From contig JBNZDD010013510.1 in the NCBI GenBank assembly GCA_050575255.1, positions 124,001-188,000 on the forward strand: a stretch of DNA of 64,000 nt. Direction: 5' to 3'. Under the pieces are notes generated by a model. That model ran no database searches, had not been told where the DNA came from, and worked only from the letters and a program-made list of their open reading frames with translations. Each line of letters opens with the position of its first letter. Position 1 is the first letter of the stretch. The stretch is from Harriotta raleighana. Lineage: Eukaryota. Position numbers and translations under genes: made by a program. Positions 1-26,717 of the stretch are shown in pieces.

Positions 1-1897
1 ATTCATAGTCTTTCTGTGCCACCAGCAATGAAAACTTATTTGAAGGAATACCACTATAAACAAAAAGTCCGAGTGCTCAGGTGCAATGAACTGTAGTGGT
101 AACGTGAATCAGCAGAAAACCGATGGCCTACAATAAATTCTAATTTATAAAGTACCATGAACATCACTAATCCATAAAGAAATTAGTTAGTATTTGTTTT
201 AAATAGAAGTTTACTGGCACAGTATTTTGATAAGATACCTTTTATGGACTGTTTACTTTAACATTATTCTCTATTGTATTCAAACATTCCCACTTGATTT
301 CCTTTCTTTACACCAGTGCATTTAAAACTGCTGTACTGTACAAAATATTGATTTGACTTTTTCTCATGACACTCAGCTCTTATGATTTTACCTTAAAAAG
401 GTCTTTGTCATTTCATCCATCTGAAATCCAAGTGTATTGAGTTCGATCTCAAGACTAAACATTTCTAAAGCCAATTCAAAACATCAAAGAATGTATAACC
501 ACAATTTTATTTGCACTGTTTTTATACTTTTCCAAATGTATTAATCTATAATTTGTAGAGCTCGACAAGTGTAACAAAATACAATATGAATGTAACCTGG
601 GTTATTACACTGTAACTTTCCAATTCATTTTACATGAGTAAAAACTAACAAAATGCTATTGTTTGAAGTCTGTTTTATACAATAATGCAGTTTAGAAATG
701 TATTCTTAACTTTCTAATAACAAATCTAACAATTTAATGTCAACTGATCTCAAAAGAGATAACCAAAGGTTAATCAAAGGTTCATTAGAAATCAAGCCAG
801 AGAATGACAAAAAGACCAATCAGGACCTAAAGAGTGTACATGTGAGCAGCAGAATACTGACCAAATAAAACTTAAAACACATGTGAAAGGATGCAACTGA
901 ACAGAAAGAAATGGAACTGAAGTCTAAATTAGAATATTTAAAGCAAGACAGTAAACAGCTGGAAAGTAGAGGGAATCTTTAAAGAGTTAAAAGTAAGAGG
1001 GTTTCATTTTTACTTTGGTCAGGTGGGGGGCTGACACAGAAATGTATCACGATAGTATTCAAACCAGACAAAATTTACATAATGTCAAATTTAATAATTC
1101 CTTTACAAGAAGTTAATTAATAATTTAATAAGTATATTCTATATTCACTTTGCTTAAAGGGTTGTTTGAAATCACATGAGACTTTTGTCTCTGCAGAGTA
1201 CAATAAACGTGATATATGCTTCCGAATTTAACATTGGAATTTGTGGCAATATGTAACTGGATTGCTCAATAAGCAACAATGACAATAAGGGAATGACATC
1301 ATGCTGACTCATGAAAATCCACCTTGGAACATAGACGCTAAAGTCACGCTCACTTACTTCCAATTTTCTTATTAAAGAACCAAGTGAGAAATTGCCACAT
1401 TCTGGATGCCATTAAAATTTTAGGAAGATTTCATTGTTTAAATACAGCATCCTTGTGTTTAATCAAAAATGTTATGTAACACCCGGATTGAAAACAAACT
1501 ACCAACTGACTAATGGAATACACCATGGAAGGCTTACAAAGAGTGTGAGGGGCTGACTCCCAAGTGCTTAAATCAAGTTCTTGTTCAGAATCATTCTGTT
1601 TTTGGAGGCAATCTACGCTTAACTGCCGCATACCACTCTTGTAAACAAAAGTGCATTACAGGGTGTACTAAATGGATGGTTGTGCTGAAGTAATGCTACC
1701 GTCTCTAATAAAAAAAACATTGTAACTAACTCAAGTTTGAAGAATTCCATCATTGCATCACCACCACCACACCCACCCTAACCCCACATAGAATTATACA
1801 GAAGTCTTTGGTGTAACTTCTAAGATGCAGAGATACACATTTTTCTATTTTCAACATATAAAAAAAGCCCTGACTCAAGCATTTTTAGCATTCATCC

Positions 1898-4390: not shown

Positions 4391-4402
4391 GCCATCTAGT
4401 GG
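4391..4402 (-). promoter_or_regulatory. CTCF-like motif
   Basis: CCACTAGATGGC on the minus strand; similar motifs at 22233-22244 (-), 63564-63575 (-) and 16361-16374 (+). Confidence 0.45.
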
Positions 4403-4530
4403 GCAATGCAAGTCACTAAAGGTACAATGAGAGTTTCTATTTGAGACTTGTTTTTAAACTAAATGTAAATTGAAAGATTTACTTTATTGAGTGCAGGGAG
4501 CAGAGTAATCCCCCAGGTTCTTTCAAAATG

Positions 4531-4562
4531 TTACAAGGAACGTAGGGAGAAACACCATAGGC
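4531..4562 (-). CDS. candidate terminal exon of the OST-alpha-like gene
   Basis: Strong acceptor tttttttcttcttcctcccctcag, phase-compatible (C)LWCFSLRSL then TAA, AATAAA at 4483-4488. Confidence 0.4.
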
Positions 4563-5251
4563 CTGAGGGGAGGAAGAAGAAAAAAATCATAGATTTTGAG
4601 ATCACTGCTGGAATATGAACCTGTGAGGATGCCTCATATTCTGGTGAGAACAAAATCGAGTTCAGTTGAACCCTGCTGCTGAAATAGTCTGCCAACACTC
4701 GCCCTCAAGGCTCGCACATAAAAAAAATATGAACAGCAGAGGGGCAGAGCTTGGAGAAGAATATGCCAGCAAGACAGGATAGGAGGAAATAAAACTGGAG
4801 AGAAAACTAAAATGAAAATGGAACACAAGCTGTGTGTACTAATATTGCTGTGTGAACATTTGCTCTCAGTTATTGCTGAAATTAATATTCTTCAGAAATC
4901 AAAATTAAGGGTTTAATTGATTGAATGTGATTCGTTGTGTTCATGAAAGTATTGAAAGCAATGGACAATTGCTGCAATAAGTACAGTCCACCAATTGTAA
5001 CAAAGAATGATACCCATTTAATATGAATGACATGATTATAGTGTACTACAATGCACCAACATACATAATACACAAGATAATTCTAACATTAATTCACATG
5101 TGGAAACTTTCTATATCACAATATAATCTGATCTGGTTATTTATCCATTTTTACATACACATATCTTTTGGTTACATTCACATATGTTCTGATAGGCTCT
5201 CACACCACTCTATCAATGAGCAAATGTCACTTAAGAGTAAATATTGATTAG

Positions 5252-5372
5252 GACATAAGAATTAGGAGCAGGAGTAGGCCATTCGGCCCTTCGAGCCTGC
5301 CCCGCGATTCAATAAGATCATGGTTGATCTATTCTTATTCCACCTACACGCCTTATCCCTGAATCCCTTTAG
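5252..5372 (-). mobile_element. CR1-type LINE 3' end
   Basis: Reverse complement ...ggctcgaagggccgaatggcctactcctgctcctaattcttatg, typical of shark CR1 tails. Confidence 0.75.
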
Positions 5373-6315
5373 ATTTCAGTCTGAATGTCAAGTTAAAATC
5401 ATCAATATTATAACTTGGTCTTGATACCCTGCGTGAAGTACGCTATATAAATGCAAGTTATTGCTTGTTATATAACAACGGTATGATCACCAATTAGCAT
5501 TGTGTCACTGGTCCCTTCATAGCACATGCACACTAAAAGCAGACAAGCTCCATCAGCACACATCATCCTTCAAATTATGATATAGAGCGTCAAAATGAGT
5601 CATTGAGGATCGTGCTGTCACACTTCACCTCAAAATATGTCGAAGAGCGATGAGTACCCTTTGAAGATCAACAATGCTATTTGAAATATTCTGACTGGTA
5701 ATGGAGCCAGATATTTTGGGAAGCAATTCTTAGGGTCCACACTCAAATCACACTTTTGGCATTGGTTTGCTTACGCAACTGACAATCAATAAGCAGCAGA
5801 GATCATTCAGCAGTGAGGCTTGCTGGAAACATACATTCAATGAAAGATATCCAGTTTGAAAAGTGAATTTACAGGCTATTGGAAAAGTTGAATCAGAGGC
5901 AAAACGTTCGGCCTTTCCGTTCGATGTTCAATTTGGTACATATGGTAGCTACAAAATAACTAAAATCATTTATAAAAATGTTAGCATATCAGAGAGTCCC
6001 ATTTCCTCTTCGCATCCCATTATTCAGCAGGACTGCTTGATTCAAAGCTCTCAACAGGAATGTGGGGGTGAAAACATACTCAAACTGGTGACGAGCAAGC
6101 AAAATAGACTGTGAGGTATCAGAGAAGGTACAGTAATTGGAAAATCACACCTCACAGAATTTCATGCCATAAAGCATAGATTTTTTTTTGCTGTTTAGCT
6201 CAATCACTGCTTAAAAAGGCAAATGCTGTTTTTTTCAAGGAATATTGTGAAGTGGGTTTTCAAAATACAGTGGAGTGGATTCTGGCAACCTTTGGTGATA
6301 ATACTTTCTACTTAC

Positions 6316-6432
6316 AAGGAGTAGCACAAACATTTCCAGAATCTTTGCATGGTGATCTATTTCTGTAGAGAAATGATAAGCGAGTTATTGGAAAGCAAAT
6401 GATAACAAAAAATAATACCAATCTCAAAATAT
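6316..6432 (-). CDS. OST-alpha-like exon 7 (last TM and YR motif)
   Basis: (H)ILRLVLFFVIICFPITRLSFLYRNRSPCKDSGNVCATP; gtaagt donor, or read-through to TAG at 6308-6310; acceptor choice uncertain (second AG 7 nt upstream). Confidence 0.65.
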
Positions 6433-7294
6433 CTGATTACTGCGTCAATAGTAGATCGCAATAAACATAGTAATTAAACAAACCGACATGGATGAGATTA
6501 TCATCACAATGTAGAATTAGCAACAATTTGTATAGCGTTTTTCTTATTCAGTGAGAGGACATCTCAATGTGCTTCACTCAACTGAAAGGGGATAATAAAT
6601 GAACATTGTAGGAATGATTGCCTGGAATTATTGGAACAGGAATAGTTGGGTGGAGAATATTTATCACATTTATAGAAGTGGTGCTGAATACAATGCCAGC
6701 AATATAGGGCCTGTAGGGAGGTGCCAAGATAAACAACATCCTACATATTTCCTGTTAACTAAGAATGGAATATTTCAGCCTCATCATCTTAAAATACCCT
6801 GCCGGCCTTCACTGTTCAGGTTCACACCAAGAATGAATGGCGAGTAAATTTGAACAACCAAAGCACCACAACAAAGCTTAATCCTGTCTTTATCTGACAT
6901 CTGCATGTGCAAATATACTAGCAAGGATCAATTGATAACAGCTATGGGCAGAACCACTCCATGACTCTTGGGTTATAGGGTTTTTCAACTTCCTCCTACC
7001 AACCGGTTGAGATCAGCCAATTCAGCACAGCTGGGGGGAGAATTTAGCTTTAAACTTGCTCTGTTTGGCTCATATTAGTTATGCTTTTTATCCAGCTAGC
7101 TACAAATCTATATCTAAGTACAACACTGCTTAACAATATTTCAGAAGACAATCCTTATTCAATATTACAATTAGGTGGCACTTGTCCATCCTGCTGAAAT
7201 CTAGAAGCAAATTCTAACTATTGTATTTTGCTGCATACAAAGGACAATCTGATGTCTGTACTGAGAAAGTTGATGTTGCTACTTTGATACTTAC

Positions 7295-7550
7295 GCAACG
7301 CTCTGTTTTTGGAGGAATATAGGGGCACGCAAGGAATGACATTGTAAGTCGCAAGATTGCTCAGTATCAGTGGCTGCAGATTGCAAAGAAGGATGTAGAC
7401 AATGATAATTGCATATTTAGCCACAAGATGATATCCTGTTTCTGCGATGCCAATGGCTGCTTTCAGCAACAAGTTGAATGCATACAAGGATAATAAAGCA
7501 GACACATTCAGCAGGATCTTGATGTACAGCAAGGGATCCATTGTGTGTAC
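7295..7550 (-). CDS. OST-alpha-like exon 6
   Basis: VHTMDPLLYIKILLNVSALLSLYAFNLLLKAAIGIAETGYHLVAKYAIIIVYILLCNLQPLILSNLATYNVIPCVPLYSSKNRAL; I-x-C-x-P-x-YS motif; 256 nt. Confidence 0.9.
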
Positions 7551-8224
7551 CTGGAAAAGGAAGTTTCATTTATTAATATAGCTCAATCTTAAATTTCAGG
7601 CCTTGAGGGCCACTTCAGAATTATCATACAACCTATTTTCATTTATATACATATTTTATTGTACAACATACAATATATTAATTCTCAGTGCCTTGGGACA
7701 TCCTCCCGACATGAAAGGCACCCTTTTAATATAATTTTGTAGTTGTTGTTCAGGGAAGTACAATATATTTTTCTAGAATATATTGTATTTCAGTAAACTG
7801 ATTTAAATAAAGCATAGTACTGTACATTTTGGTGTTTCTAAACTACACCATCAGTGAGAATATACAAAACCAAATGTTTTACTAAATATGAAATACATCA
7901 AATATAAAGCATTTTAAGAATTTAATTTAAACTTGAAAGAATACTAATGATATATATTTTTCCAAAGTTGCATTTTATTCCAGGACCAAGTTCAGGTATT
8001 CGAGGATCCAGTGGAATTTTAGATAATCATTAAGATTAGATTGTCAATTTTAGCGTAGATTAATAATTCCGTCAGCACTCGGAGGTTATAAAACACAATG
8101 TAAACTTAATTTTGCTGAAGCTGGCAAAAATAAATCTGTTGATAAAAATGAACCCTTTCGTGAATGAAATGAATTGCCTGAATTCTTGGACATGGAAAAA
8201 AAAACGCAGACCGAATTCAGTTAC

Positions 8225-8336
8225 CTGTCCATTATTATATTCACCATCGGCCCATAGGATGGTAGAGATGAACTGGAGTAAAGGCTGCAGGGTCAATGCT
8301 TGCAAGATGCCAATTCGAAGGATTGAGTAAGCTTTT
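8225..8336 (-). CDS. OST-alpha-like exon 5
   Basis: KAYSILRIGILQALTLQPLLQFISTILWADGEYNNGQ; cag/gtaact; 112 nt. Confidence 0.9.
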
Positions 8337-9416
8337 CTGTGGAACACATATCCCAAATAACGTCAATTATCAGAATGACATTTCTGGATTTACTTTCTAA
8401 AGTATCTCACACAACCCACATTTCCTCCTTTATGTGTGGCATAGTTTCAGTCATCTTTATTTAATTCATTGCTGATAGAGTGGATTATCAGACATTGTGT
8501 AGCAAAAACACTCCTTGCTTTTTATATAATGCTTTTCACATCAGGAGGATATCCTAAAGTGAATAGATTCAATAGCTTGAATAGATTTACCTAAACGAGG
8601 CATAACTATGAGGCTTAAAAAAAATTTAATCAGGAGGATTTTTAGCCAGGGTAGAAGAAACTATCTTCTCTTTTTATTCAGCGCCACAGAATGTTTAACA
8701 TCCAGTTGAATGTTATTCCATGTGAAGGGTGCTATATAATTGCATTTTGTTGTTGATTAAGCAGAAGGGACCCTGGATTAAGTCTTTGCTTTGTAAACTA
8801 CAAAACAAGTTAATTCATATAAAACATTAACCATGAACCTGCAAATGTCATATGTAAATAGTGCTTTCTTCAATAGTACATTATTATACTTATTATCTTC
8901 ACTTCAAATGATCCCAATATTTTGTTACTCAGAATGAAATGTGATCCGGATAAATTGCTAATATAGTAAATATATGTTCTCAATTTTTAACCTTATATTT
9001 TATGAGTTTATACTTTTATAATTATTTTACTTGATTGGATTCCTGCATTTAATAAACAAGCACATATTGCATCAAGAAAGACATTTAAGACACCGAGTCT
9101 TAAAATACTGCATGTGAAGCATTTTCATACAATTTATTGCCCACAGACAAGAAAGATCCTGGATCACTTGATATCCAAAGGGAACAGTTTTAGGTAAGAA
9201 TGACAGGACCAGTTTTATTCCTCTCTATACTGTTTTGCTGGTGGCATTTCAACTTATCTGCATCCAAGAGTCCCACACAATGGATGAACTAGGACAATGA
9301 CTGACTAATGGTTCACTGGACATTAACTGAGCGAATAGAAAGCAATAAAGAAAAGCACTATAGCATATATAATAGCTATGTATTCTATTGTTGAAAGATA
9401 TGTGGCAATACTGTAC

Positions 9417-9575
9417 CTGCTTATTTTGACCTTTGGGAGGCAGGTACAACAGCAGCAGCAAGGTCCCAAATTTAATGGTGTATCCACATATTGCAGTTTA
9501 TCAATAGCTTCAGTGACTCCTCCAAGGTAAGCAATAGTGAGGTGGAAGAAACTAAACAAAGATAGACTGGCATAT
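9417..9575 (-). CDS. OST-alpha-like exon 4 (cysteine-rich loop)
   Basis: YASLSLFSFFHLTIAYLGGVTEAIDKLQYVDTPLNLGPCCCCCTCLPKVKIS; GPCCCCCxCLP is the hallmark OST-alpha motif; 159 nt. Confidence 0.93.
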
Positions 9576-9668
9576 CTATGCAGAGAAAGTCAGATTAGAA
9601 TCAAAAATACATCCCTTATCAATGCCAGTCATGCAAAGCATCTTCAATATACAATAAAGTAAGAGTAA

Positions 9669-10020
9669 GTGGAGTCCTGTAGCTCAGTGGTTAGAGCACT
9701 CGCCTCACAAACGAGAGACCTGGGTTTGATTCCCAGCAAAGCGCTTGTGCAAGTTTCCTTACTCCACATGCCTCTGCTCACCGAGCAGTCAGTAGGAACC
9801 CAGTTGTTAGTTGATTGGCGGAACGCTTTTCCGGGGGTATTAATTCCTTTGATTGTTCACTTTAATCCACGAGTGTTTGTGGGACACAGCTGTGCGCAAT
9901 TGTCTGCCATGTTTCACCCACAAACTGGAGTCAATTCACTTTACAGTATATTCTGTGAAGTGAGTCTCAATGACGCGATAAGGCACTAGATGAAATGTAA
10001 GGATTGATATTATTATTATT
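9669..10020 (+). mobile_element. tRNA-derived SINE, variant middle segment
   Basis: Head TAGCTCAGTGGTTAGAGC (A box) with degenerate B box, shared body gtttgtgggacac...gtgcgcaattg, (ATT)n tail. Confidence 0.85.
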
Positions 10021-10031
10021 ACATTACTTAC

Positions 10032-10105
10032 ACTGCACTCACAAAGTCCACCAGGACTCCTGCCCTTGGAACAAACATCCCCAACTGATAAGCGATGGTA
10101 GTAAC
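10032..10105 (-). CDS. OST-alpha-like exon 3
   Basis: VTTIAYQLGMFVPRAGVLVDFVSA; G-x-x-x-PR motif of the OSTa/TMEM184 family; tag/gtaagt; 74 nt. Confidence 0.88.
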
Positions 10106-10576
10106 CTAAGAAAAAAAAAGAGCAGAATTTTTTTTCCTGAGATTGCTTTATCTCCTGTACTTTGTATTTTTGTGAAGGTTCACAGAACAACACATTTAAG
10201 CAGTATTCGGCTGTGATGAAAATCCAATCAAATACTAACTGAATATCCTGTAAACTATATCAGCAAAGTGCGGGTGGGAGAAAGGAATAGGAAGTGGATA
10301 GGGATAGGAATCCATGCACTAAAACTACTGCTAGTCAACAACCAAAACAGTGTTAGATACAGTGTTAGATACAGCTTGGCAAGAGCCAAGGTTTGTGTGT
10401 GTGTGAGAGGTGTGTGTTAGGGTACTGTTGGAATACTAATAGCCCATAGCTTGCAATTGAGAACATAGCCTGGCAAGCCTTCCTATCTGTTAGGTCTTTG
10501 GCTCAACAAATGCACTGACCGAGAACGTACATCACATAATGAGGTCTGAAATGTATCTTGATGGTTAAATTGCAAC

Positions 10577-10887
10577 AATAATAATCCTTGCATTTGATAT
10601 TGCGCTTTTCACATCGTCTCAAAGCGCTTCACAGAATATACTGTAAAGTAAATTAACTGTATAGATGTGGGTGGAATGCGCCAGCCAATTGCGCACAGCA
10701 GTGTCCCACAAACAGTCATGGATTGAGTGAGTCAATTATTCTAGTTTTTTTTGAGGGGATGGATTATTATTAGGCGTGTGGAGTAAGGAAACTTTCCCAA
10801 GGTTTCGCCCTGACCTGCCTGGATTCGAAACACAGGTCTGACGCTTGTAAGGCGAGTGCTCTAACCACCGAGCTATAGGAGCTCCAC
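10577..10887 (-). mobile_element. tRNA-derived SINE, full length
   Basis: Reverse complement of the same head, body and tail. Confidence 0.88.
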
Positions 10888-10901
10888 AATACAATACTTA
10901 C

Positions 10902-11056
10902 AGGAAATAAGGCCAGGACCACCATAGTTTTCTCCTTGATTAAAGTATTCATGACATTGTTGTTTACATATATCCATAGCTCTACGAAGATGCAATAATT
11001 GGCAATCGCGACAGCATTGAGTAAAACCATGATAGCGATTCCAGCAGGTGTGAGGC
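10902..11056 (-). CDS. OST-alpha-like exon 2 (TM1)
   Basis: LTPAGIAIMVLLNAVAIANYCIFVELWIYVNNNVMNTLIKEKTMVVLALFP; tag/gtaagt; 155 nt. Confidence 0.85.
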
Positions 11057-11929
11057 CTAGAGTAAGAAAGGAATAAAAAGATACCAAATTGCTCTCAGTG
11101 TTATTTGAATTTCCATGAAAAGTGGAAGATTAAGCTGGCATGATCAGCACATTGATATTTAATACAGTAGTTAAGGGAATACAAAGGTAACAGTTTGTGA
11201 TAAGGATTTCACTGGGCCAGTATCTGCATGCCTGCGTGTATCAATTGCATGTCATTTATTTCAGGAATTATACCACATTTCTATGCAACGGATGCCATCC
11301 CTCTTCCCAGCCGGCCTTTCTCCCTCAGGCTTTAAGTGGTAATTTACAGACAGCACTGGAATCTCTGGAATGCTTTCGTTATCTGTTCCAGTGAAATCAG
11401 TTTCCAAGCGGTTTTTAAACTGGTGCAGCCCAGACGACGCAAAGTTCATCGAAGGGCACCCGCCTTTTTACAAACAGCACCCACAGCTCAGACGTGTCAT
11501 ACACTCAAGCTGGGGCTTCTGGACAGCCTTCAGTAGCAGTGGTAGGAGACAATCTGAGCCAACCCGCAATATAAAAGTCCCATCGTTTGGGGGTGCTCAT
11601 CATTTCTCGCTGGCTTGCTGACTCCTTTGTCTTTATTTTCTGCTATCCCCGACTGGTTGCGACAGTATTATTAACTGTGAGCTCCCATCACATCATGCTC
11701 GGCTGTGGAATGTTGGCAGAATATTAATCCCCTTTCACTGCTACAATTCCACGCGTCTGACTTTCAGATACGACTTGTAGAGATGAAAGAAATTGTACAA
11801 ATGTGATTTATTGTAGTTGTTGTGGTGGTTGTAGCATACCCCCCCGGTTTGCCTTGAAGACAAGACTTCGCAGAAACCTTTGGGGCTTCTTTGCCCCGTC
11901 AAGTTTCGCTAAACCTCAAATATATAACC

Positions 11930-12136
11930 CCACTTCCATGACTGTTTTGTGGGACACCGCTGTGCGCAATTTAGCTGCCGCGTTTCGCCCGCAAATATAG
12001 AGTCAATTTTCCTACTTTCCTTTCCCCGACCCCTCCCACCCTGCTCTGATCCCTACTTGATTGTTCAGCGCCTTGGGACGTCCTCCCGACGTGAAAGGCG
12101 CTATATAAATGTCATTATTGATTCATTGATTGATTG
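11930..12136 (+). mobile_element. SINE 3' half with the alternative L2-type tail ending in (TTGA)n
   Basis: Shared body, C-rich linker, then cagcgccttgggacgtcctcccgacgtgaaaggcgctatataaatg; related copies at 12437-12597 (-) and about 57165-57320 (+). Confidence 0.75.
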
Positions 12137-12839
12137 AACATATGCTGCTCAGTTGACATTGTTTCAACAACAACAACAACAACAACAAAATTACATTTGT
12201 GTAGTGCCTTTCATGTTGGGAGGACATCCTCTAGTTGGTAAGTGTATGCTGTGCTGATTCCCACTGAATTCCTGCCTTTCAATTCAAAACTCTAAATATA
12301 AAATTGTCCTACGCCCGAGCTCACAGTCCAGCTGTCTGATCCAAATTGTTGTACACTGTACGATTATAACTTGCCTTTTGGATGAAACGTATAAACATGA
12401 GGTCTGTTTGGCCTGTTTTTAGGTGGGCGTTAAAGATCAATCAATCACTCAAAACTTACATTTATCTAGCGCCTTTCGCGTCAGGAGGACGTCCCAAGGC
12501 GCTGAACGGTCAGGTAGAGACCAGAGGGTGTGGGGGGGAGGGGTTGGGGTAGAGGGAAAGAGAGTAGGAGAATTGACTGTATATTTGTGGGTGAAAAGAT
12601 TCCCCGATTCCGTTCCAAAAACAGAAAGGATTTCCCCTATTTGGTCACGCAAGGGGCTTGCTTTAACAATCATGTGATAGGAAAGAACAAAATGAAAGAA
12701 TGAGCAGATTTTCCTGGATTTAGTTCCACCAGCTTCTCAGCCGTGGTCCCTGCAAGGAAAGCACACAATACGGCATTGAACAAATCCGGGCGGACAATTC
12801 GGTAAATCACTTGCAGTCATTCCGTAACGTAAACTTTAC

Positions 12840-12888
12840 CTTCCAGCAGCTCGTAAGAGTACGGCAAACTGTCACTGCAGTTGGGCAT
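12840..12888 (-). CDS. OST-alpha-like (SLC51A family) first coding exon
   Basis: acaATG context; MPNCSDSLPYSYELLE-G; gtaaag donor in phase 1 joins the next exon in frame. Confidence 0.7.
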
Positions 12889-13039
12889 TGTTACTGGTAA
12901 TAAGCGAAGCTTCGGGTGAAATGGTTCAGGAATATTGAGGACTAAACATCCCACTTCTGTCGAGTGCTGCTGTGGCTTCTTCTTGTTAAAGATCTGGTTG
13001 CTGTTCGATACTTTGTTGTACCCAAGCAAAGATAAATAT

Positions 13040-15096: not shown

Positions 15097-18000
15097 TGTG
15101 TGCTCTTTTCTCTAAACTTGATGTCCACAAAGCCACAACTTCTACAACCTAACTGGTTATGTAACTCTCCTCTTCCCCTTAAGTCAGAAGACTGAAAACA
15201 GATGTTAGTGACTGAATCAGATTCCATGAGAATTGACATGAGATAATCAAAATGCAGCAACCAGAAGCAAACCAGTTCAGTTTGCTTTCCAGATGAGGCC
15301 TCAATATGCCAAGTACAGTATTTGAGAATCAACCAGTGTAACCCCAGCATTGATATGGAACATGGACTACAGTGTTAGATCTTAACAGCGAGATCTTAAT
15401 CAATAAAGAGAGCGAGACCGCATAACCCAAAGTTCTTTGCCCTTTCGCTGTGGTGTGTTAATTCAGATTCCACATAATAATTCTTGCATTTTGATATATG
15501 GGCTTTTCACGTCTTCCAGACGTCTCAAAGCACTTCACAGAATAAATTGTACAGTTAATCGACTGTATATTTGCGGGCGAAACGCGGCAGCCAATTGCAC
15601 ACAGCAGTGTCCCACAAACAGTCATGGATTGAGTGACCAAATTATTATAGGTTTTTTTTTGACGGATTATTATTAGGCGTAGGGAGTAAGGAAACTTGCC
15701 CAAGGTTTCGCCCTGACCTTCCTGGATTTGAAACGCAGGTCTCACGTTTGTAAGGCGAGTGCTCTAACCACTGAGCTATGGGACTCCAGAAATTCTCAGG
15801 GTCATTGATTCCCTCAAACTCGTTCCCCAGTGAACATTCTTGACAATCTGCTGTTCAAACACTGCTTCAAAATTAACGAACACTACAGCTATTGTCGCAA
15901 TAGGAATTGATTTAACCTGATGTGTTTGCATGGGAATGTATCAGAAATCCCAGTGCACAGACCCCGAACTCTAGTTCACACTCGATCCACTCTTCAGACA
16001 ATGTTTTTACATTTAAAAAAAAATCAAAACAAGCAAAAGATTTGTAAAACAAAGTCATATGTTCTGGAACTATTAATACTCTCTTGCAACCATCATTAAT
16101 CCCCAACAAAGGGCCTCTTATACCAGTGGCAAAAATCAATAATAATCCTTGCATTTGATACAGTGCTTTTCACATCTTCTAGACAACTCAAATCGCTTCA
16201 CAGAATATGCTGTAAAGTGAATTGAAAATGAACTTGCGAAGCAGCTTCATAAAAGCAAGCCAACGAAGAAACATTTCTATTTAGTTTCAAACATATTTGC
16301 TTCATAAGGATTAAGGGTTAATAAGGATTAAGGGTTAATTGCATTGCTTGAATAGGATGACCACAAGATGGAGCTCAGAATACATGTTCAATGCAAACAT
16401 TTGCCTTTTGTCCTATTACAGTATTGTTTCTCAGTTTATTCAACAATTAATCATTCCCACCAAAACTATTCCGAGCAGTCTCCACTGAGCTCTCGCACAC
16501 CTATCTAAAGCTGTCAGCTTCCTTCCTTGAATCGATGGCCCTAAATTCGAATCTTTTCTTTTCATCCAAATGTTTTGTGAGATGAAATCAACGTTACACT
16601 TTTGCTTTGTTGTAAACAACGATTGAAAAGGTGTTGGATGAGAGACCTAGAAATTTAAATTGCCTGCAGCCTACAAGCAAATATTGAGCTTGTGTAAGTT
16701 ACTGCACAATGACTAATCGATATTCAGTATTCAGTGCTCAATTTCTACATCATCTTCACTCACTGCACAACACACCATACATATTGCCCGGTTTTTTGCT
16801 GTTCCTCTGTCACCATCCTTAACCTCTGAGGGTTGATGCTTTCACATTCTGAAATATTACATTGTGGAGCTCCTAAGTGGTTAGAGCACTCANTGTGTGC
16901 TCTTTTCTCTAAACTTGACGTCCACAAAGCCACAACTTCTACAACCTAACTGGATATGTAACTCTCCTCTTCCCCTTAAGTCAGAAGACTGAAAACAGAT
17001 GTTAGTGACTGAATCAGATTCCATGAGAATTGACATGAGATAATCAAAATGCAGCAACCAGAAGCAAACCAGTTCAGTTTGCTTTCCAGATGAGGCCTCA
17101 ATATGCCAAGTACAGTATTTGAGAATCAACCAGTGTAACCCCAGCATTGATATGGAACATGGACTACAGTGTTAGATCTTAACAGCGAGATCTTAATCAA
17201 TAAAGAGAGCGAGACCGCATAACCCAAAGTTCTTTGCCCTTTCGCTGTGGTGTGTTAATTCAGATTCCACATAATAATTCTTGCATTTTGATATATGGGC
17301 TTTTCACGTCTTCCAGACGTCTCAAAGCACTTCACAGAATAAATTGTACAGTTAATCGACTGTATATTTGCGGGCGAAACGCGGCAGCCAATTGCACACA
17401 GCAGTGTCCCACAAACAGTCATGGATTGAGTGACCAAATTATTATAGGTTTTTTTTTGACGGATTATTATTAGGCGTAGGGAGTAAGGAAACTTGCCCAA
17501 GGTTTCGCCCTGACCTTCCTGGATTTGAAACGCAGGTCTCACGTTTGTAAGGCGAGTGCTCTAACCACTGAGCTATGGGACTCCAGAAATTCTCAGGGTC
17601 ATTGATTCCCTCAAACTCGTTCCCCAGTGAACATTCTTGACAATCTGCTGTTCAAACACTGCTTCAAAATTAACGAACACTACAGCTATTGTCGCAATAG
17701 GAATTGATTTAACCTGATGTGTTTGCATGGGAATGTATCAGAAATCCCAGTGCACAGACCCCGAACTCTAGTTCACACTCGATCCACTCTTCAGACAATG
17801 TTTTTACATTTAAAAAAAAATCAAAACAAGCAAAAGATTTGTAAAACAAAGTCATATGTTCTGGAACTATTAATACTCTCTTGCAACCATCATTAATCCC
17901 CAACAAAGGGCCTCTTATACCAGTGGCAAAAATCAATAATAATCCTTGCATTTGATACAGTGCTTTTCACATCTTCTAGACAACTCAAATCGCTTCACAG

Positions 18001-18689
18001 AATATGCTGTAAAGTGAATTGAAAATGAACTTGCGAAGCAGCTTCATAAAAGCAAGCCAACGAAGAAACATTTCTATTTAGTTTCAAACATATTTGCTTC
18101 ATAAGGATTAAGGGTTAATAAGGATTAAGGGTTAATTGCATTGCTTGAATAGGATGACCACAAGATGGAGCTCAGAATACATGTTCAATGCAAACATTTG
18201 CCTTTTGTCCTATTACAGTATTGTTTCTCAGTTTATTCAACAATTAATCATTCCCACCAAAACTATTCCGAGCAGTCTCCACTGAGCTCTCGCACACCTA
18301 TCTAAAGCTGTCAGCTTCCTTCCTTGAATCGATGGCCCTAAATTCGAATCTTTTCTTTTCATCCAAATGTTTTGTGAGATGAAATCAACGTTACACTTTT
18401 GCTTTGTTGTAAACAACGATTGAAAAGGTGTTGGATGAGAGACCTAGAAATTTAAATTGCCTGCAGCCTACAAGCAAATATTGAGCTTGTGTAAGTTACT
18501 GCACAATGACTAATCGATATTCAGTATTCAGTGCTCAATTTCTACATCATCTTCACTCACTGCACAACACACCATACATATTGCCCGGTTTTTTGCTGTT
18601 CCTCTGTCACCATCCTTAACCTCTGAGGGTTGATGCTTTCACATTCTGAAATATTACATTGTGGAGCTCCTAAGTGGTTAGAGCACTCA
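15097..18689. repeat. 1796-bp near-identical tandem duplication across a single N (likely assembly artefact)
   Basis: 15097-16892 matches 16894-18689, offset 1797; N at 16893; only two substitutions noticed. Confidence 0.9.
15474..15788 (-). mobile_element. tRNA-derived SINE (repeated at 17271-17585 by the assembly duplication)
   Basis: Same family consensus. Confidence 0.88.
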
Positions 18690-20498: not shown

Positions 20499-20726
<228 letters not shown>

Positions 20727-24319: not shown

Positions 24320-26005
24320 CGAGAGAGAGAGAGAAAATAAAATTATAAACCTTACACTTCTATCCAGAACTTAAAATCTTACCAAGGGATTAAAGCTTCA
24401 CATCCCTAAAGGAGTCAAGACTGACACCATTTTTTTTTTTTAAGTGTATGATCAAAAAACATACAGCAGCTTTCAAAGGTCATCTTCACTAACCAACGTC
24501 TTTCTAGATTATTTGTAGCCTTGTAACTCTGCCTCAGATTTGCTTCAAATTTGCTTCCTGAAGAGACTCCTGAATGTTCAGCAAGATCATAAGGGGCAAG
24601 GGAATTTCAGTGTGCTTCAACAGTTCCTATTGGTTATTTTGGCCCAGCATAAACTAGAGTTGGGAGATCCATGCTTTTATTCAGTGACAGAGCTCGCTGA
24701 AATAAGAGGAGGGGGTTTTTGATTGATTAAACCATCTTTTGGGTCGAAGGAGGGCAAAGAAAGGGATATAAAGCATCTTCATAATTCCAGGTTTACAGGC
24801 TGTGTGTGTGTGTACCCGTACGCACAACTTTCTACATGATAGATGCTTCGCAATAAGTCTACCCTGATTCTGCATCAAATGATTAGGGCTTCAGTTAGAG
24901 CTACAGAACAAATCTTCTGGAGAGATGACAGCAAAATAGAAAGTTAAAGTTTCTCTTTATACTTCGAACCAAATGTTTCCATGGACAGACTCTGTTCTTC
25001 CCCCAAACATATAAATGATAATTAATATCCCTCCTCGATGATAATTGATCATGATAATTAATATCACTGTTAATTCGTGAAATTAGTTAGAACGGTTTGG
25101 TTTGTTATTTGAAAACCTTAAGGTGGGTACACTTTCACAGTAGAATTTAACAAAGCAGCACTTCCAAGAGTGGATATATCTTTTAAGGCAGTGACGCACA
25201 CAGCACTCTGGTTAAATAAATGCAGTGACAGCAATGCAGTAACAGAGAGGTGAGAGCAGTCACAGAGATTCTCAGCGCTTCTCTAAACTAAAGCTTGCTT
25301 TGAAATAAGGCTGTTCATTTAATTTCCCATCAGTAATATCAGACATTAAAACATTTTCCGAAGGATGTTCACTGCTGTCTCGATTCACAACGTTCATAAC
25401 AATGCACAAGGGAGTAGTATTTCTGTGTGAATATCTCATCGATGGGAATAAAAAAAAACAAATCCCTTTGGTGTCTTGATTACCATTATCAAACGAATAA
25501 CATTTAATTTGATTTACCAATTAAATGCCAGGTTCCAGAATAAATATTTCACTTTTTAAAAAAATACCAAAATAACTTCATTTAATTTCTTATTGCATAT
25601 TAAAATGCTCTTTTTATTAATTTTAAAATGCAAAGGCACTATTTTATTCCTTCCTTCCCCTTCCTGGGTGTGTATTACCTGTAGGATACAACAACTTAAA
25701 GTTATCCCCTTACCCGACAACATGCAGCTGTCTGTTTTTCAGAAAACCCTCCCCAAGCTCGTGTTAATTATTTCTTTACATAATCCCCAAGTTTCTCCGA
25801 GCTAAAATAGCCATTAAGCCGCAAATGCATGACGCAATCCTGATCCTTTTCAATCTCAATGGATGACCTGTGCAGTGAGCACTGGCCTATCACGTTGGTT
25901 TCCACGTGAAAATATCGCCACTGCTTCTCTAAATCGTTCTGAATTAGAAGGCCGATCGAATAACAGTGAATGAAACATCCGCAGCAATTGTGAATGCGAG
26001 CTCAC

Positions 26006-26152
26006 CCGGTCAAAGTGGTTAAAAGAGGCTCGGAACTCGTTCATCTGCTCCTGGCTGATGCCCTTGGCGTCTCTGGTCAGGACCTGGTTCTCAATCTCGT
26101 TGATGGTCCTGGCGATTGTGGTGAGCAGCTGCTCCCAGCCCACACGGATGTG
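26006..26152 (-). CDS. ACTN1: alpha-actinin-1 exon 18
   Basis: [49 protein letters not shown]; 147 nt. Confidence 0.97.
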
Positions 26153-26255
26153 CTGAAATGAAGACACAAAAGAAATAACACCCATCAATACAGAAGTCTC
26201 ATTCAAGTCACTTGCTGATCGATCAAAGGGATACTCTTTAGCTTACGGCAATTCA

Positions 26256-26717
<462 letters not shown>

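Follow-up and report, generated by a model that had tools for sequence, protein, structure and literature searches.

The window analysed here, a 64,000-nucleotide stretch of contig JBNZDD010013510.1 of Harriotta raleighana (positions 124,001 to 188,000), holds on its minus strand a gene of the OST-alpha family, placed between an alpha-actinin gene and a SOCS4-like gene. The features are as follows:

1–96, plus strand: 3′ end of a SOCS4-like coding sequence, the convergent neighbour 6.1 kb downstream of the OST-alpha-like gene
4531–4640, minus strand: last exon of the initial annotation, outside the conserved coding model and with no ortholog alignment
6235–6362, minus strand: actual terminal coding exon (128 nt up to the stop), encoding TM7, in which Lys275 is clade-specific and Glu278 family-wide
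7295–7550, minus strand: exon 6, 256 nt, TM5-TM6 groove; Lys213, Ile216 and Ile233 are at human positions 241, 244 and 260
8225–8336, minus strand: exon 5, 112 nt, TM4; Gln163 is at the position of human Lys191
9417–9575, minus strand: exon 4, 159 nt, with the Gly-Pro-Cys-rich motif
10032–10105, minus strand: exon 3, 74 nt
10902–11056, minus strand: exon 2, 155 nt, first TM helix; present on the spliced contigs of a relative
12840–12888, minus strand: coding exon 1, 49 nt, ATG at 12888, phase 1 donor; the N-terminus aligns with orthologs
20502–20660, minus strand: final coding exon of the upstream gene, which is alpha-actinin-1-like; it lies some 7.6 kb from the OST-alpha-like start codon

Regarding the gene model, exons 1 to 6 all have AG/GT ends and compatible phases; the 155/74/159/112 nt exons, which the initial annotation had likened to those of SLC51A, are present as described, and so is the Gly-Pro-Cys5 motif, within exon 4 at about 9466–9434, with six Cys in the window version. 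The seven-exon open frame proposed earlier stands for these six exons and fails at the seventh: the use of 4640–4531 was rejected, as it gives a C-terminus unalignable to orthologs and only 242/310 identities to the Callorhinchus milii protein P0001, and the contigs of the relative (three runs from one study, guessed to be RNA) join position 7295 directly to 6362. No long piece among the relative's contigs listed covers 4640–4531, which by itself proves nothing. With the last exon at 6362–6235, the coding span is therefore 12888–6235, and the corrected protein is exactly 310 aa long, with 276 residues (89%) identical to the C. milii OST-alpha-like protein. The shorter N-terminus already noticed is real, with 3 residues ahead of the first conserved Cys versus 30–31 in most mammal-type rows of the alignment; its reading as the mark of a special loss was dropped because 11 of 60 non-vertebrate rows likewise have three or fewer.

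The gene is intact, conserved and spliced in the relative. Among the listed exonic differences from this relative, 23 of 33 fall on third codon positions (p = 2e-5), and the identity to C. milii is higher for this gene, whose lineage is named clade C below, than for the gene of the SLC51A group (89% against 79.5%, 241/303).

As for the neighbours, the proximity to ACTN1 was confirmed: the upstream gene is an alpha-actinin on the same strand, and its last exon scores best with human alpha-actinin-1 (101 bits versus 80 for actinin-2), a call based on two exons, with no alpha-actinin-4 chain among the matches. Overall, ACTN1-like, SOCS4-like and SAMD4A-like genes flank the clade C gene. ZFP36L1, cited earlier as the neighbour of human ACTN1, was rejected as a neighbour here; the downstream genes are SOCS4-like and SAMD4A-like, no CCCH-finger gene occurs within 100 kb downstream, and the ZFP36L-type (Tis11B-type) genes sit elsewhere, on contigs C13719 and C13709.

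The Pfam family PF03619 (Solute_trans_a) matches three of the six exon frames scanned (E 7.8e-9, 7.9e-5 and 0.045), with 35.7 bits for exon 6 alone and 116.5 bits for the C. milii ortholog, the cut-off being 24.9. A 7-TM fold of the OST-alpha type is predicted for the clade C product: for the C. milii ortholog (89% identical), AF2 gives a model with a pLDDT of 88.7, while a run with 9 sequences (pLDDT 47) was set aside; Foldseek superposes the former model on human OST-alpha with TM 0.85–0.87 and rmsd 1.7–2.1, VIA gives Z 33–34.5 and rmsd 1.9–2.3 across 295–299 residues, with the next fold at 13.9, and the ESM Atlas search returned the OST-alpha family alone. Human OST-alpha (SLC51A; PDB 9ljg, 9unv, 9uo2) has in common with clade C PF03619, this fold and the Cys-rich loop; it differs in that clade C is only 26–27% identical, non-orthologous, set among different neighbours and about 28 residues shorter at the N-terminus. 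TMEM184 proteins belong to the same Pfam family, have a related fold (PMC13346981), and are encoded at separate loci in the genome.

Two maximum-likelihood trees (IQ-TREE LG+G4 and PMSF) were calculated over the OST-alpha lineages, with TMEM184 sequences left out. Clade C has 100/100 support and a long stem branch (1.0–1.2); it falls outside vertebrate group A, which contains SLC51A together with the lamprey and hagfish proteins (97/93–94), and the tunicate protein groups with A, leaving clade C outside (98/97 and 98/95). In the AU test, joining clade C to A1 (mammal type) is rejected at p = 0.001, to A2 (fish type) at p = 0.0002 and to all jawed-vertebrate A at p = 0.0004; the test does not reject clade C as sister to the whole of vertebrate A (p = 0.088) or to clade B (p = 0.2), the latter being a third lineage described below. 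Gly158 is common to clades C and A, the non-vertebrate consensus being Pro. These placements make clade C an old lineage apart from the SLC51A orthologs, with an exact age that varies with its position in the tree. The divergence beyond ortholog level, suspected from the start, was confirmed: the clade C protein has 27% identity with SLC51A of rodents and 26.5% with that of C. milii, compared with 41% between human and skate OST-alpha (PMC5942847).

Members of clade C were found in sharks, other cartilaginous fish, bichir, lungfish and eight teleosts. The best 27 matches include no tetrapod, and none from gar, sturgeon, coelacanth, zebrafish or percomorphs; the proposed loss in mammals fits the former, and the proposed retention in cartilaginous fish proved too narrow. 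Databases tag these genes "OST alpha-like", automatic labels only, for proteins 45–89% identical to the window protein and in most cases 310–313 aa long; no description of the lineage was found in the literature.

Regarding the rest of the genome, an SLC51A-group gene of the fish type lies at G000:C13720:4334662-4344575, beside a PCYT1 gene, so that the window gene is not the only copy. Human SLC51A is linked to PCYT1A. A further OST-alpha-type gene (si:dkey-16n15.6-type, clade B) is on G000:C12905, an OST-beta-like gene is present, and contigs C13706 and C13677 carry what are, judging by their sequence, TMEM184 loci, separate from the clade C locus. The window gene is a paralog, and this genome has three or more OST-alpha lineages; the "second lineage" of the initial annotation was right as to a separate old lineage and wrong as to the count.

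Under another reading, the window gene would be either an SLC51A ortholog that has diverged or a copy in decay. Searching the assembly with lungfish A1 turned up no mammal-type A1 gene, and the 120 kb surrounding the PCYT1A-like gene (8% N) showed none either; one C. milii member of clade C is called "organic solute transporter subunit alpha" at NCBI. Against an ortholog stand the AU rejection of clade C with A1 and the lungfish, which holds an A1 and a clade C gene together; against decay, a possibility that had been raised for this locus, stand the open frame, the exons joined in the relative's contigs and the third-position bias. Both forms of this reading are very improbable.

The fish-type SLC51A group comprises C. 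milii XP_007901236, teleost slc51a, and the caecilian, lizard and bird OST-alpha-like proteins. Its gene on C13720 has the 155, 74 and 159 nt exons of clade C in the same phases and the Gly-Pro-Cys motif; it differs in its PCYT1 neighbour, in an extra intron that splits exon 6 into 147+106 (a single 256-nt exon in clade C), in the identity of 26.5–33%, and in the retention of basic 191, basic 244 and Gln260. Clade B occurs in coelacanth, eel, rays, sturgeon and tortoise; like clade C, it has a single exon 6 (253 nt), a hydrophobic 260 and a basic 241 in 4/6 rows, whereas its identity is 28–29%, basic 191 and 244 are kept, the C-tail is long and the linkage is to FtsJ-type and MHC-type genes. 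These flanks (read from the first 30 kb of a 38-kb contig) are without actinin or SOCS genes, which leaves the idea of clade B as a genome-duplication twin unsupported.

The substrate path was compared in a 126-row alignment (31 A, 6 B, 23 C and 66 non-vertebrate rows), with human numbering from PMC13346981; the residue roles too were taken from this research highlight, not from the primary structure papers. In human OST-alpha, Arg241, Arg244 and Gln260 form the anion-binding groove, which contains cholesterol in the apo state, the tunnel has the basic Lys191 and the acidic gate Glu116, the Cys-rich motif is palmitoylated, and Gln260Ala reduces taurocholate uptake (PMC13346981). Clade C keeps Cys32, Cys161 (22/23 rows; in the Cys-rich TM3-TM4 loop, with palmitoylation predicted by analogy), Lys255, Cys284 and Glu305, and position 116 is acidic in 23/23 rows; the N-terminal and extracellular-loop Cys, the acidic 116, Lys255 and Glu305 are thus features in common with the human protein. 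The groove is not conserved, and 241 alone stays basic (22/23 rows, compared with 4/6 in B and 5/31 in A). Position 244 is basic in 33/37 A and B rows and in 0/23 of clade C; Gln260 is present in 31/31 A and 54/66 non-vertebrate rows, in none of the 23 of clade C, and is missing in clade B too. Hydrophobic residues replace Arg244 and Gln260, while Gln, Leu or Ile stands for Lys191, a position basic in 37/37 A and B rows and in 0/22 aligned clade C rows. Conversely, TM7 position 302, Leu in human, is Lys or Arg in 23/23 clade C rows and 0/103 others.

A basic residue at either 191 or 302 occurs in 60/60 vertebrate rows, while 21 rows outside clade C have neither; the swap counts as one event, not 23, because the clade C rows share one origin. 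The tunnel charge may have been relocated from 191 to 302, taken as tunnel-facing by helical spacing, with selectivity likely altered. The idea of a different substrate, put forward earlier, is favoured by the fixed changes at 191, 244, 260 and 302. Fixed departures from the non-vertebrate consensus amount to 9/135 in clade C, 10/136 in group A and 17/136 in clade B.

The clade C product is slightly more probably than not a protein of the OST-alpha fold that carries amphipathic sterol-type anions passively, its selectivity shifted off taurine-conjugated bile acids. As in human OST-alpha, the palmitoylated Cys loop would brace an inner-leaflet groove on TM5/TM6, which retains basic 241 and has lost basic 244 and Gln260; the cargo would exit via a tunnel that separates the main lobe from the TM4-5 lobe. 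The basic residue of this tunnel would have shifted from TM4 (191) to TM7, where 302 is flanked by polar 298 and Glu305. With this, the path for anions may have been kept and retuned, e.g., to sulfated sterols or bile alcohols. Against this reading, 241 is basic in just 5/31 A rows, so that single losses are tolerated in bile-salt carriers, and Gln260 is missing in clade B as well. Moreover, the teleosts with a clade C gene are not known to have the bile alcohol sulfates that occur in sharks and lungfish, so that retention of clade C maps onto no single bile salt. The protein may well still pair with the OST-beta-like subunit of the genome, which in our judgement is slightly favoured; modelling the C. 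milii ortholog in complex with the OST-beta-like membrane exon (31 residues) gave 0.00 twice and, with the alignment unused and the partner fold uncertain, is evidence neither way.

It is rather unlikely that clade C is an equivalent isoform, with the same bile-salt and steroid-sulfate cargo and OST-beta as partner, deployed in another tissue or under other regulation, the 191-to-302 change being neutral compensation. The fold, the Cys loop, Lys255, Glu305 and one basic residue each in groove and tunnel are all retained; the apparent repeated loss (among the best 27 matches) fits partial redundancy, and the two SLC51A-group genes of trout differ by tissue (PMC13157367). Against equivalence, the Gln260 invariant in A, whose Ala mutant lowers human taurocholate uptake, is absent from all of clade C, and conservation between the chimaeras exceeds that of the SLC51A-group gene.

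Possible, though still improbable, is that clade C works as a carrier independent of OST-beta, in the ancestral manner of invertebrate and TMEM184-like proteins, for a cargo other than a bile salt (e.g., a neutral sterol or another metabolite). The split of clade C could predate OST-beta because, in both trees, the tunicate protein joins group A and invertebrates have no reported OST-beta (PMC5942847). The short N-terminus resembles that of many invertebrate homologs, the published anion contacts 191, 244 and 260 are non-basic or hydrophobic, and cholesterol occupies the apo human groove (PMC13346981). However, the new membrane Lys/Arg at 302 and the retained basic 241 point to an anionic cargo, the genome does have an OST-beta-like gene, human and skate alpha and beta subunits complement each other despite low identity (PMC5942847), and an origin on the vertebrate stem stands unrejected. 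The fuller version, a pre-vertebrate lineage surviving in fishes with a rewired path, i.e., charge moved from TM4 to TM7 and taurine-bile-acid groove dismantled, for a different sterol-type cargo, is doubtful.

SLC51A is usually handled as a single vertebrate gene, and at least three deep OST-alpha lineages coexist in one cartilaginous-fish genome; "OST-alpha" labels in fish transcriptomes can consequently mix different proteins. In conclusion, clade C is a finding of evolutionary physiology inside a known family and not a new type of system. It has fixed changes where recent cryo-EM work places the binding and translocation of anions; a charge seems to have been swapped between helices, and the clade may serve as a natural experiment on the lateral-access model and on the origin of OST-beta dependence. 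If it were a beta-independent pre-vertebrate lineage, it would link invertebrate OST-alpha/TMEM184 proteins to the bile acid exporter as a natural intermediate, and would reveal what OST-beta contributes and how specificity is set along the lateral-access path.

Regarding its structure, the OST-alpha (SLC51A)-like gene of the window is encoded on the minus strand by seven exons:

12888-12840, minus strand, exon 1
11056-10902, minus strand, exon 2, 155 nt
10105-10032, minus strand, exon 3, 74 nt
9575-9417, minus strand, exon 4, 159 nt, carrying the Cys-rich motif
8336-8225, minus strand, exon 5, 112 nt
7550-7295, minus strand, exon 6, 256 nt
6362-6235, minus strand, corrected last exon, from an acceptor scan, with a frame resembling OST-alpha TM7

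The initial annotation had also proposed seven exons, and its first six are retained, with AG/GT ends and consistent phases, as is the Cys-rich motif, located in exon 4. Its last exon, 4640-4531, gave a tail without alignment to the orthologs and a model only 242/310 identical to P0001, the Callorhinchus milii ortholog; instead, the acceptor scan found an acceptor at 6362 that opens a reading frame like OST-alpha TM7, and the resulting protein of 310 aa is identical to P0001 at 276/310 positions, gap-free. An identity at this level suggests that the source is likely a chimaera other than C. milii. Three public runs of one study on a relative, presumed to be RNA, were compared with window positions 4400-13000: one contig of 1280 bases contains the pieces 11055-10898, 9575-9417, 7547-7295 and 6362-6220, in order and with exon-only spacing; the last two abut (places 819-1071 and 1072-1214 of the record), and a contig from a second run has the identical join of 7295 to 6362. 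These contigs are the relative's spliced form, using the corrected last exon. Third codon positions hold 23 of the 33 coding differences among those listed (p=2e-5), a bias compatible with purifying selection and, coming from listed differences, short of a full dN/dS.

The gene is not the only copy, because its own genome (assembly G000) holds further OST-alpha family genes, found by searching its contigs. A separate SLC51A-group gene is on C13720, with 241/303 identities to C. milii XP_007901236; it has the 155/74/159-nt exons in common with the window gene, and differs in having exons of 94, 147 and 106 nt in place of 112 and a single 256, its exon 5 (G000:C13720:4339843-4339936) being 18 nt shorter. 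This fish-type gene (A2, 'SLC51A' in chimaeras at NCBI) is ∼84 kb from a PCYT1 gene, the two at G000:C13720:4249744-4344575; the neighbour looks like PCYT1B, judged by diagnostic residues. In chicken, according to a preprint (bioRxiv 10.1101/017186), an OST-alpha-like gene lies within a 1-Mb region also holding PCYT1B. Around the other PCYT1 gene (G000:C13729:7813498-7852404), which has TNF-family and GPCR genes beside it, 120 kb yielded no exon of OST-alpha. Instead of being orthologous to mammalian SLC51A, fish 'slc51a' may be its twin from a genome duplication, and a gene of the mammal type (A1) may be missing from this genome. As for trout, it has two slc51a genes (PMC13157367).

A third lineage, of the si:dkey-16n15.6 type, is represented by 3' exons at G000:C12905:225-1814 (L048), with a single 253-nt exon where the window gene has its 256; it also occurs in rays, coelacanth, sturgeon, teleosts and a tortoise, and a literature search on the name found no paper. 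The same GC-rich contig has an MHC-type gene on the minus strand at about 25000-26650 (L050), with weak class II beta/class I matches and a C1-set domain, adjoined by an FtsJ-type methyltransferase and the si:dkey-16n15.6-type gene. Two more distant PF03619 loci are taken to be TMEM184 genes.

Trees were built with FastTree (169 and 119 rows) and, on hand-picked subsets, with IQ-TREE (38 rows, LG+G4; 31 rows, PMSF mixture), most non-vertebrate rows being unnamed. They concur on three vertebrate clades: A, the SLC51A group, with A1, A2, a second lungfish gene, lamprey and hagfish (support 97/93-94) and a tunicate protein as sister (98/95-97); B, the si:dkey-16n15.6 type (100/100); and C, with the window gene (100/100). 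The window protein, as the initial annotation anticipated, falls outside the SLC51A ortholog clade: on the 38-row set, the AU test rejects C with A1 (p=0.001), A2 (0.0002) or jawed-vertebrate A (0.0004), and does not reject C with all vertebrate A (0.088) or with B (0.2). Characters conflict: C has Gly158 in common with A, and with B it has in common a single-piece exon 6 and a hydrophobic residue at 260. Given the length of the stem leading to C, long-branch pull is possible. Our reading is that the split of C would predate the cyclostome-jawed vertebrate divergence; it may even predate vertebrates.

Two initial searches found clade C in sharks, rays, a chimaera, bichir and lungfish. A profile including bony-fish members was then scored on 7998 candidates, with 104 matches, 27 of them at the chosen cut of at least 200 bits: 16 chondrichthyans, one bichir, one lungfish, one unnamed lungfish-like protein and eight teleosts (Polymixia, Lota, Lampris, Arctogadus, Lepidogalaxias, Centroberyx, Muraenolepis and Merluccius, the last a fragment placed by score alone). 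None of these 27 came from a tetrapod, gar, sturgeon, coelacanth, zebrafish or percomorph. A word-free scan with HMMER, covering 1.84 billion representatives, gave one full-length member (bichir, 412 bits), the next full-length match having 205 bits. The range of clade C is wider than the cartilaginous-fish lineage, lost in mammals, of the initial annotation; loss in tetrapods is likely, judged from predicted protein sets rather than genome-level searches. The teleost members detected (P0194-P0200, P0097) all come from gadiforms, beardfish, opah, a berycoid or salamanderfish; provided that the gaps are real, this patchiness implies that teleosts lost the gene several times independently.

Regarding the substrate path, the AF2 model of the C. 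milii ortholog (126-row alignment, pLDDT 88.7) matches three human OST-alpha chains far above every other fold. A 2026 research highlight on two cryo-EM papers (PMC13346981) places Arg241, Arg244 and Gln260 in the human groove, Lys191 in the tunnel, a gate at Pro209-Glu116, and palmitoyl-Cys161 with Trp234. Human numbers were transferred via a 340-aa rodent protein and hand-checked on PDB alignments; the 126 rows comprise 23 C, 31 A, 6 B and 66 others, the window protein being checked separately. Position 191 is basic in 37/37 A and B rows and in 0/22 aligned C rows, position 244 in 33/37 and 0/23; Gln260 occurs in 31/31 A, 0/6 B, 54/66 others and 0/23 C, and position 241 is basic in 22/23 C, and in only 5/31 A. 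Position 302, basic in all 23 C rows and in 0/103 others, likely lies on the inward face of TM7, because it is four past the polar 298 and three ahead of Glu305; in 60/60 vertebrate rows, 191 or 302 is basic. The tunnel charge of clade C would have been relocated from 191 to 302 and the groove retuned, preserving anion transport with an altered preference. Against over-reading, the 191/302 change counts as a single evolutionary event, neither a basic 191 nor a gained basic 302 is present in 21 non-C rows, and fixed departures in C (9/135) are no higher than in A (10/136) or B (17/136).

As for the partner subunit, an OST-beta-like gene (L046, minus strand) has a 91-nt membrane exon at G000:C13553:137164-137254 (Pfam E 4e-5, a single-exon score under the cut-off; human OST-beta is its best match in the PDB) and, at about 136500-136760, what is likely its last exon; no first coding exon was identified. 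In PMC5942847, OST-beta is reportedly missing from invertebrates, and the subunits complement across species. Independence of clade C from OST-beta would be allowed by the deep split and the reported invertebrate lack, and dependence by the complementation and the OST-beta-like gene.

An alpha-actinin-1-like gene lies upstream in the same orientation; the other side of the interval differs from the human order given in the initial annotation (ZFP36L1 downstream of ACTN1), with a convergent SOCS4-like gene 6.1 kb downstream, ending at window base 96, then a SAMD4A-like gene (window 1-96 and G000:C13510:32137-124000 for the two), and ZFP36L-type genes on other contigs. Human SOCS4, SAMD4A and ACTN1 are on 14q, and SLC51A lies by PCYT1A. 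Window positions 15097-16892 and 16894-18689 hold a 1796-base unit twice in head-to-tail order, at 99.9% identity and with a single N between; this is probably a duplication introduced by assembly at a gap.

Databases already label clade C orthologs 'OST alpha-like'; a full-text search of literature other than subscription journals found no paper describing the clade, and an earlier mention is possible. The window gene is a real, conserved, old paralog within a known transporter family, and the substrate path of its clade carries a specific, testable change.
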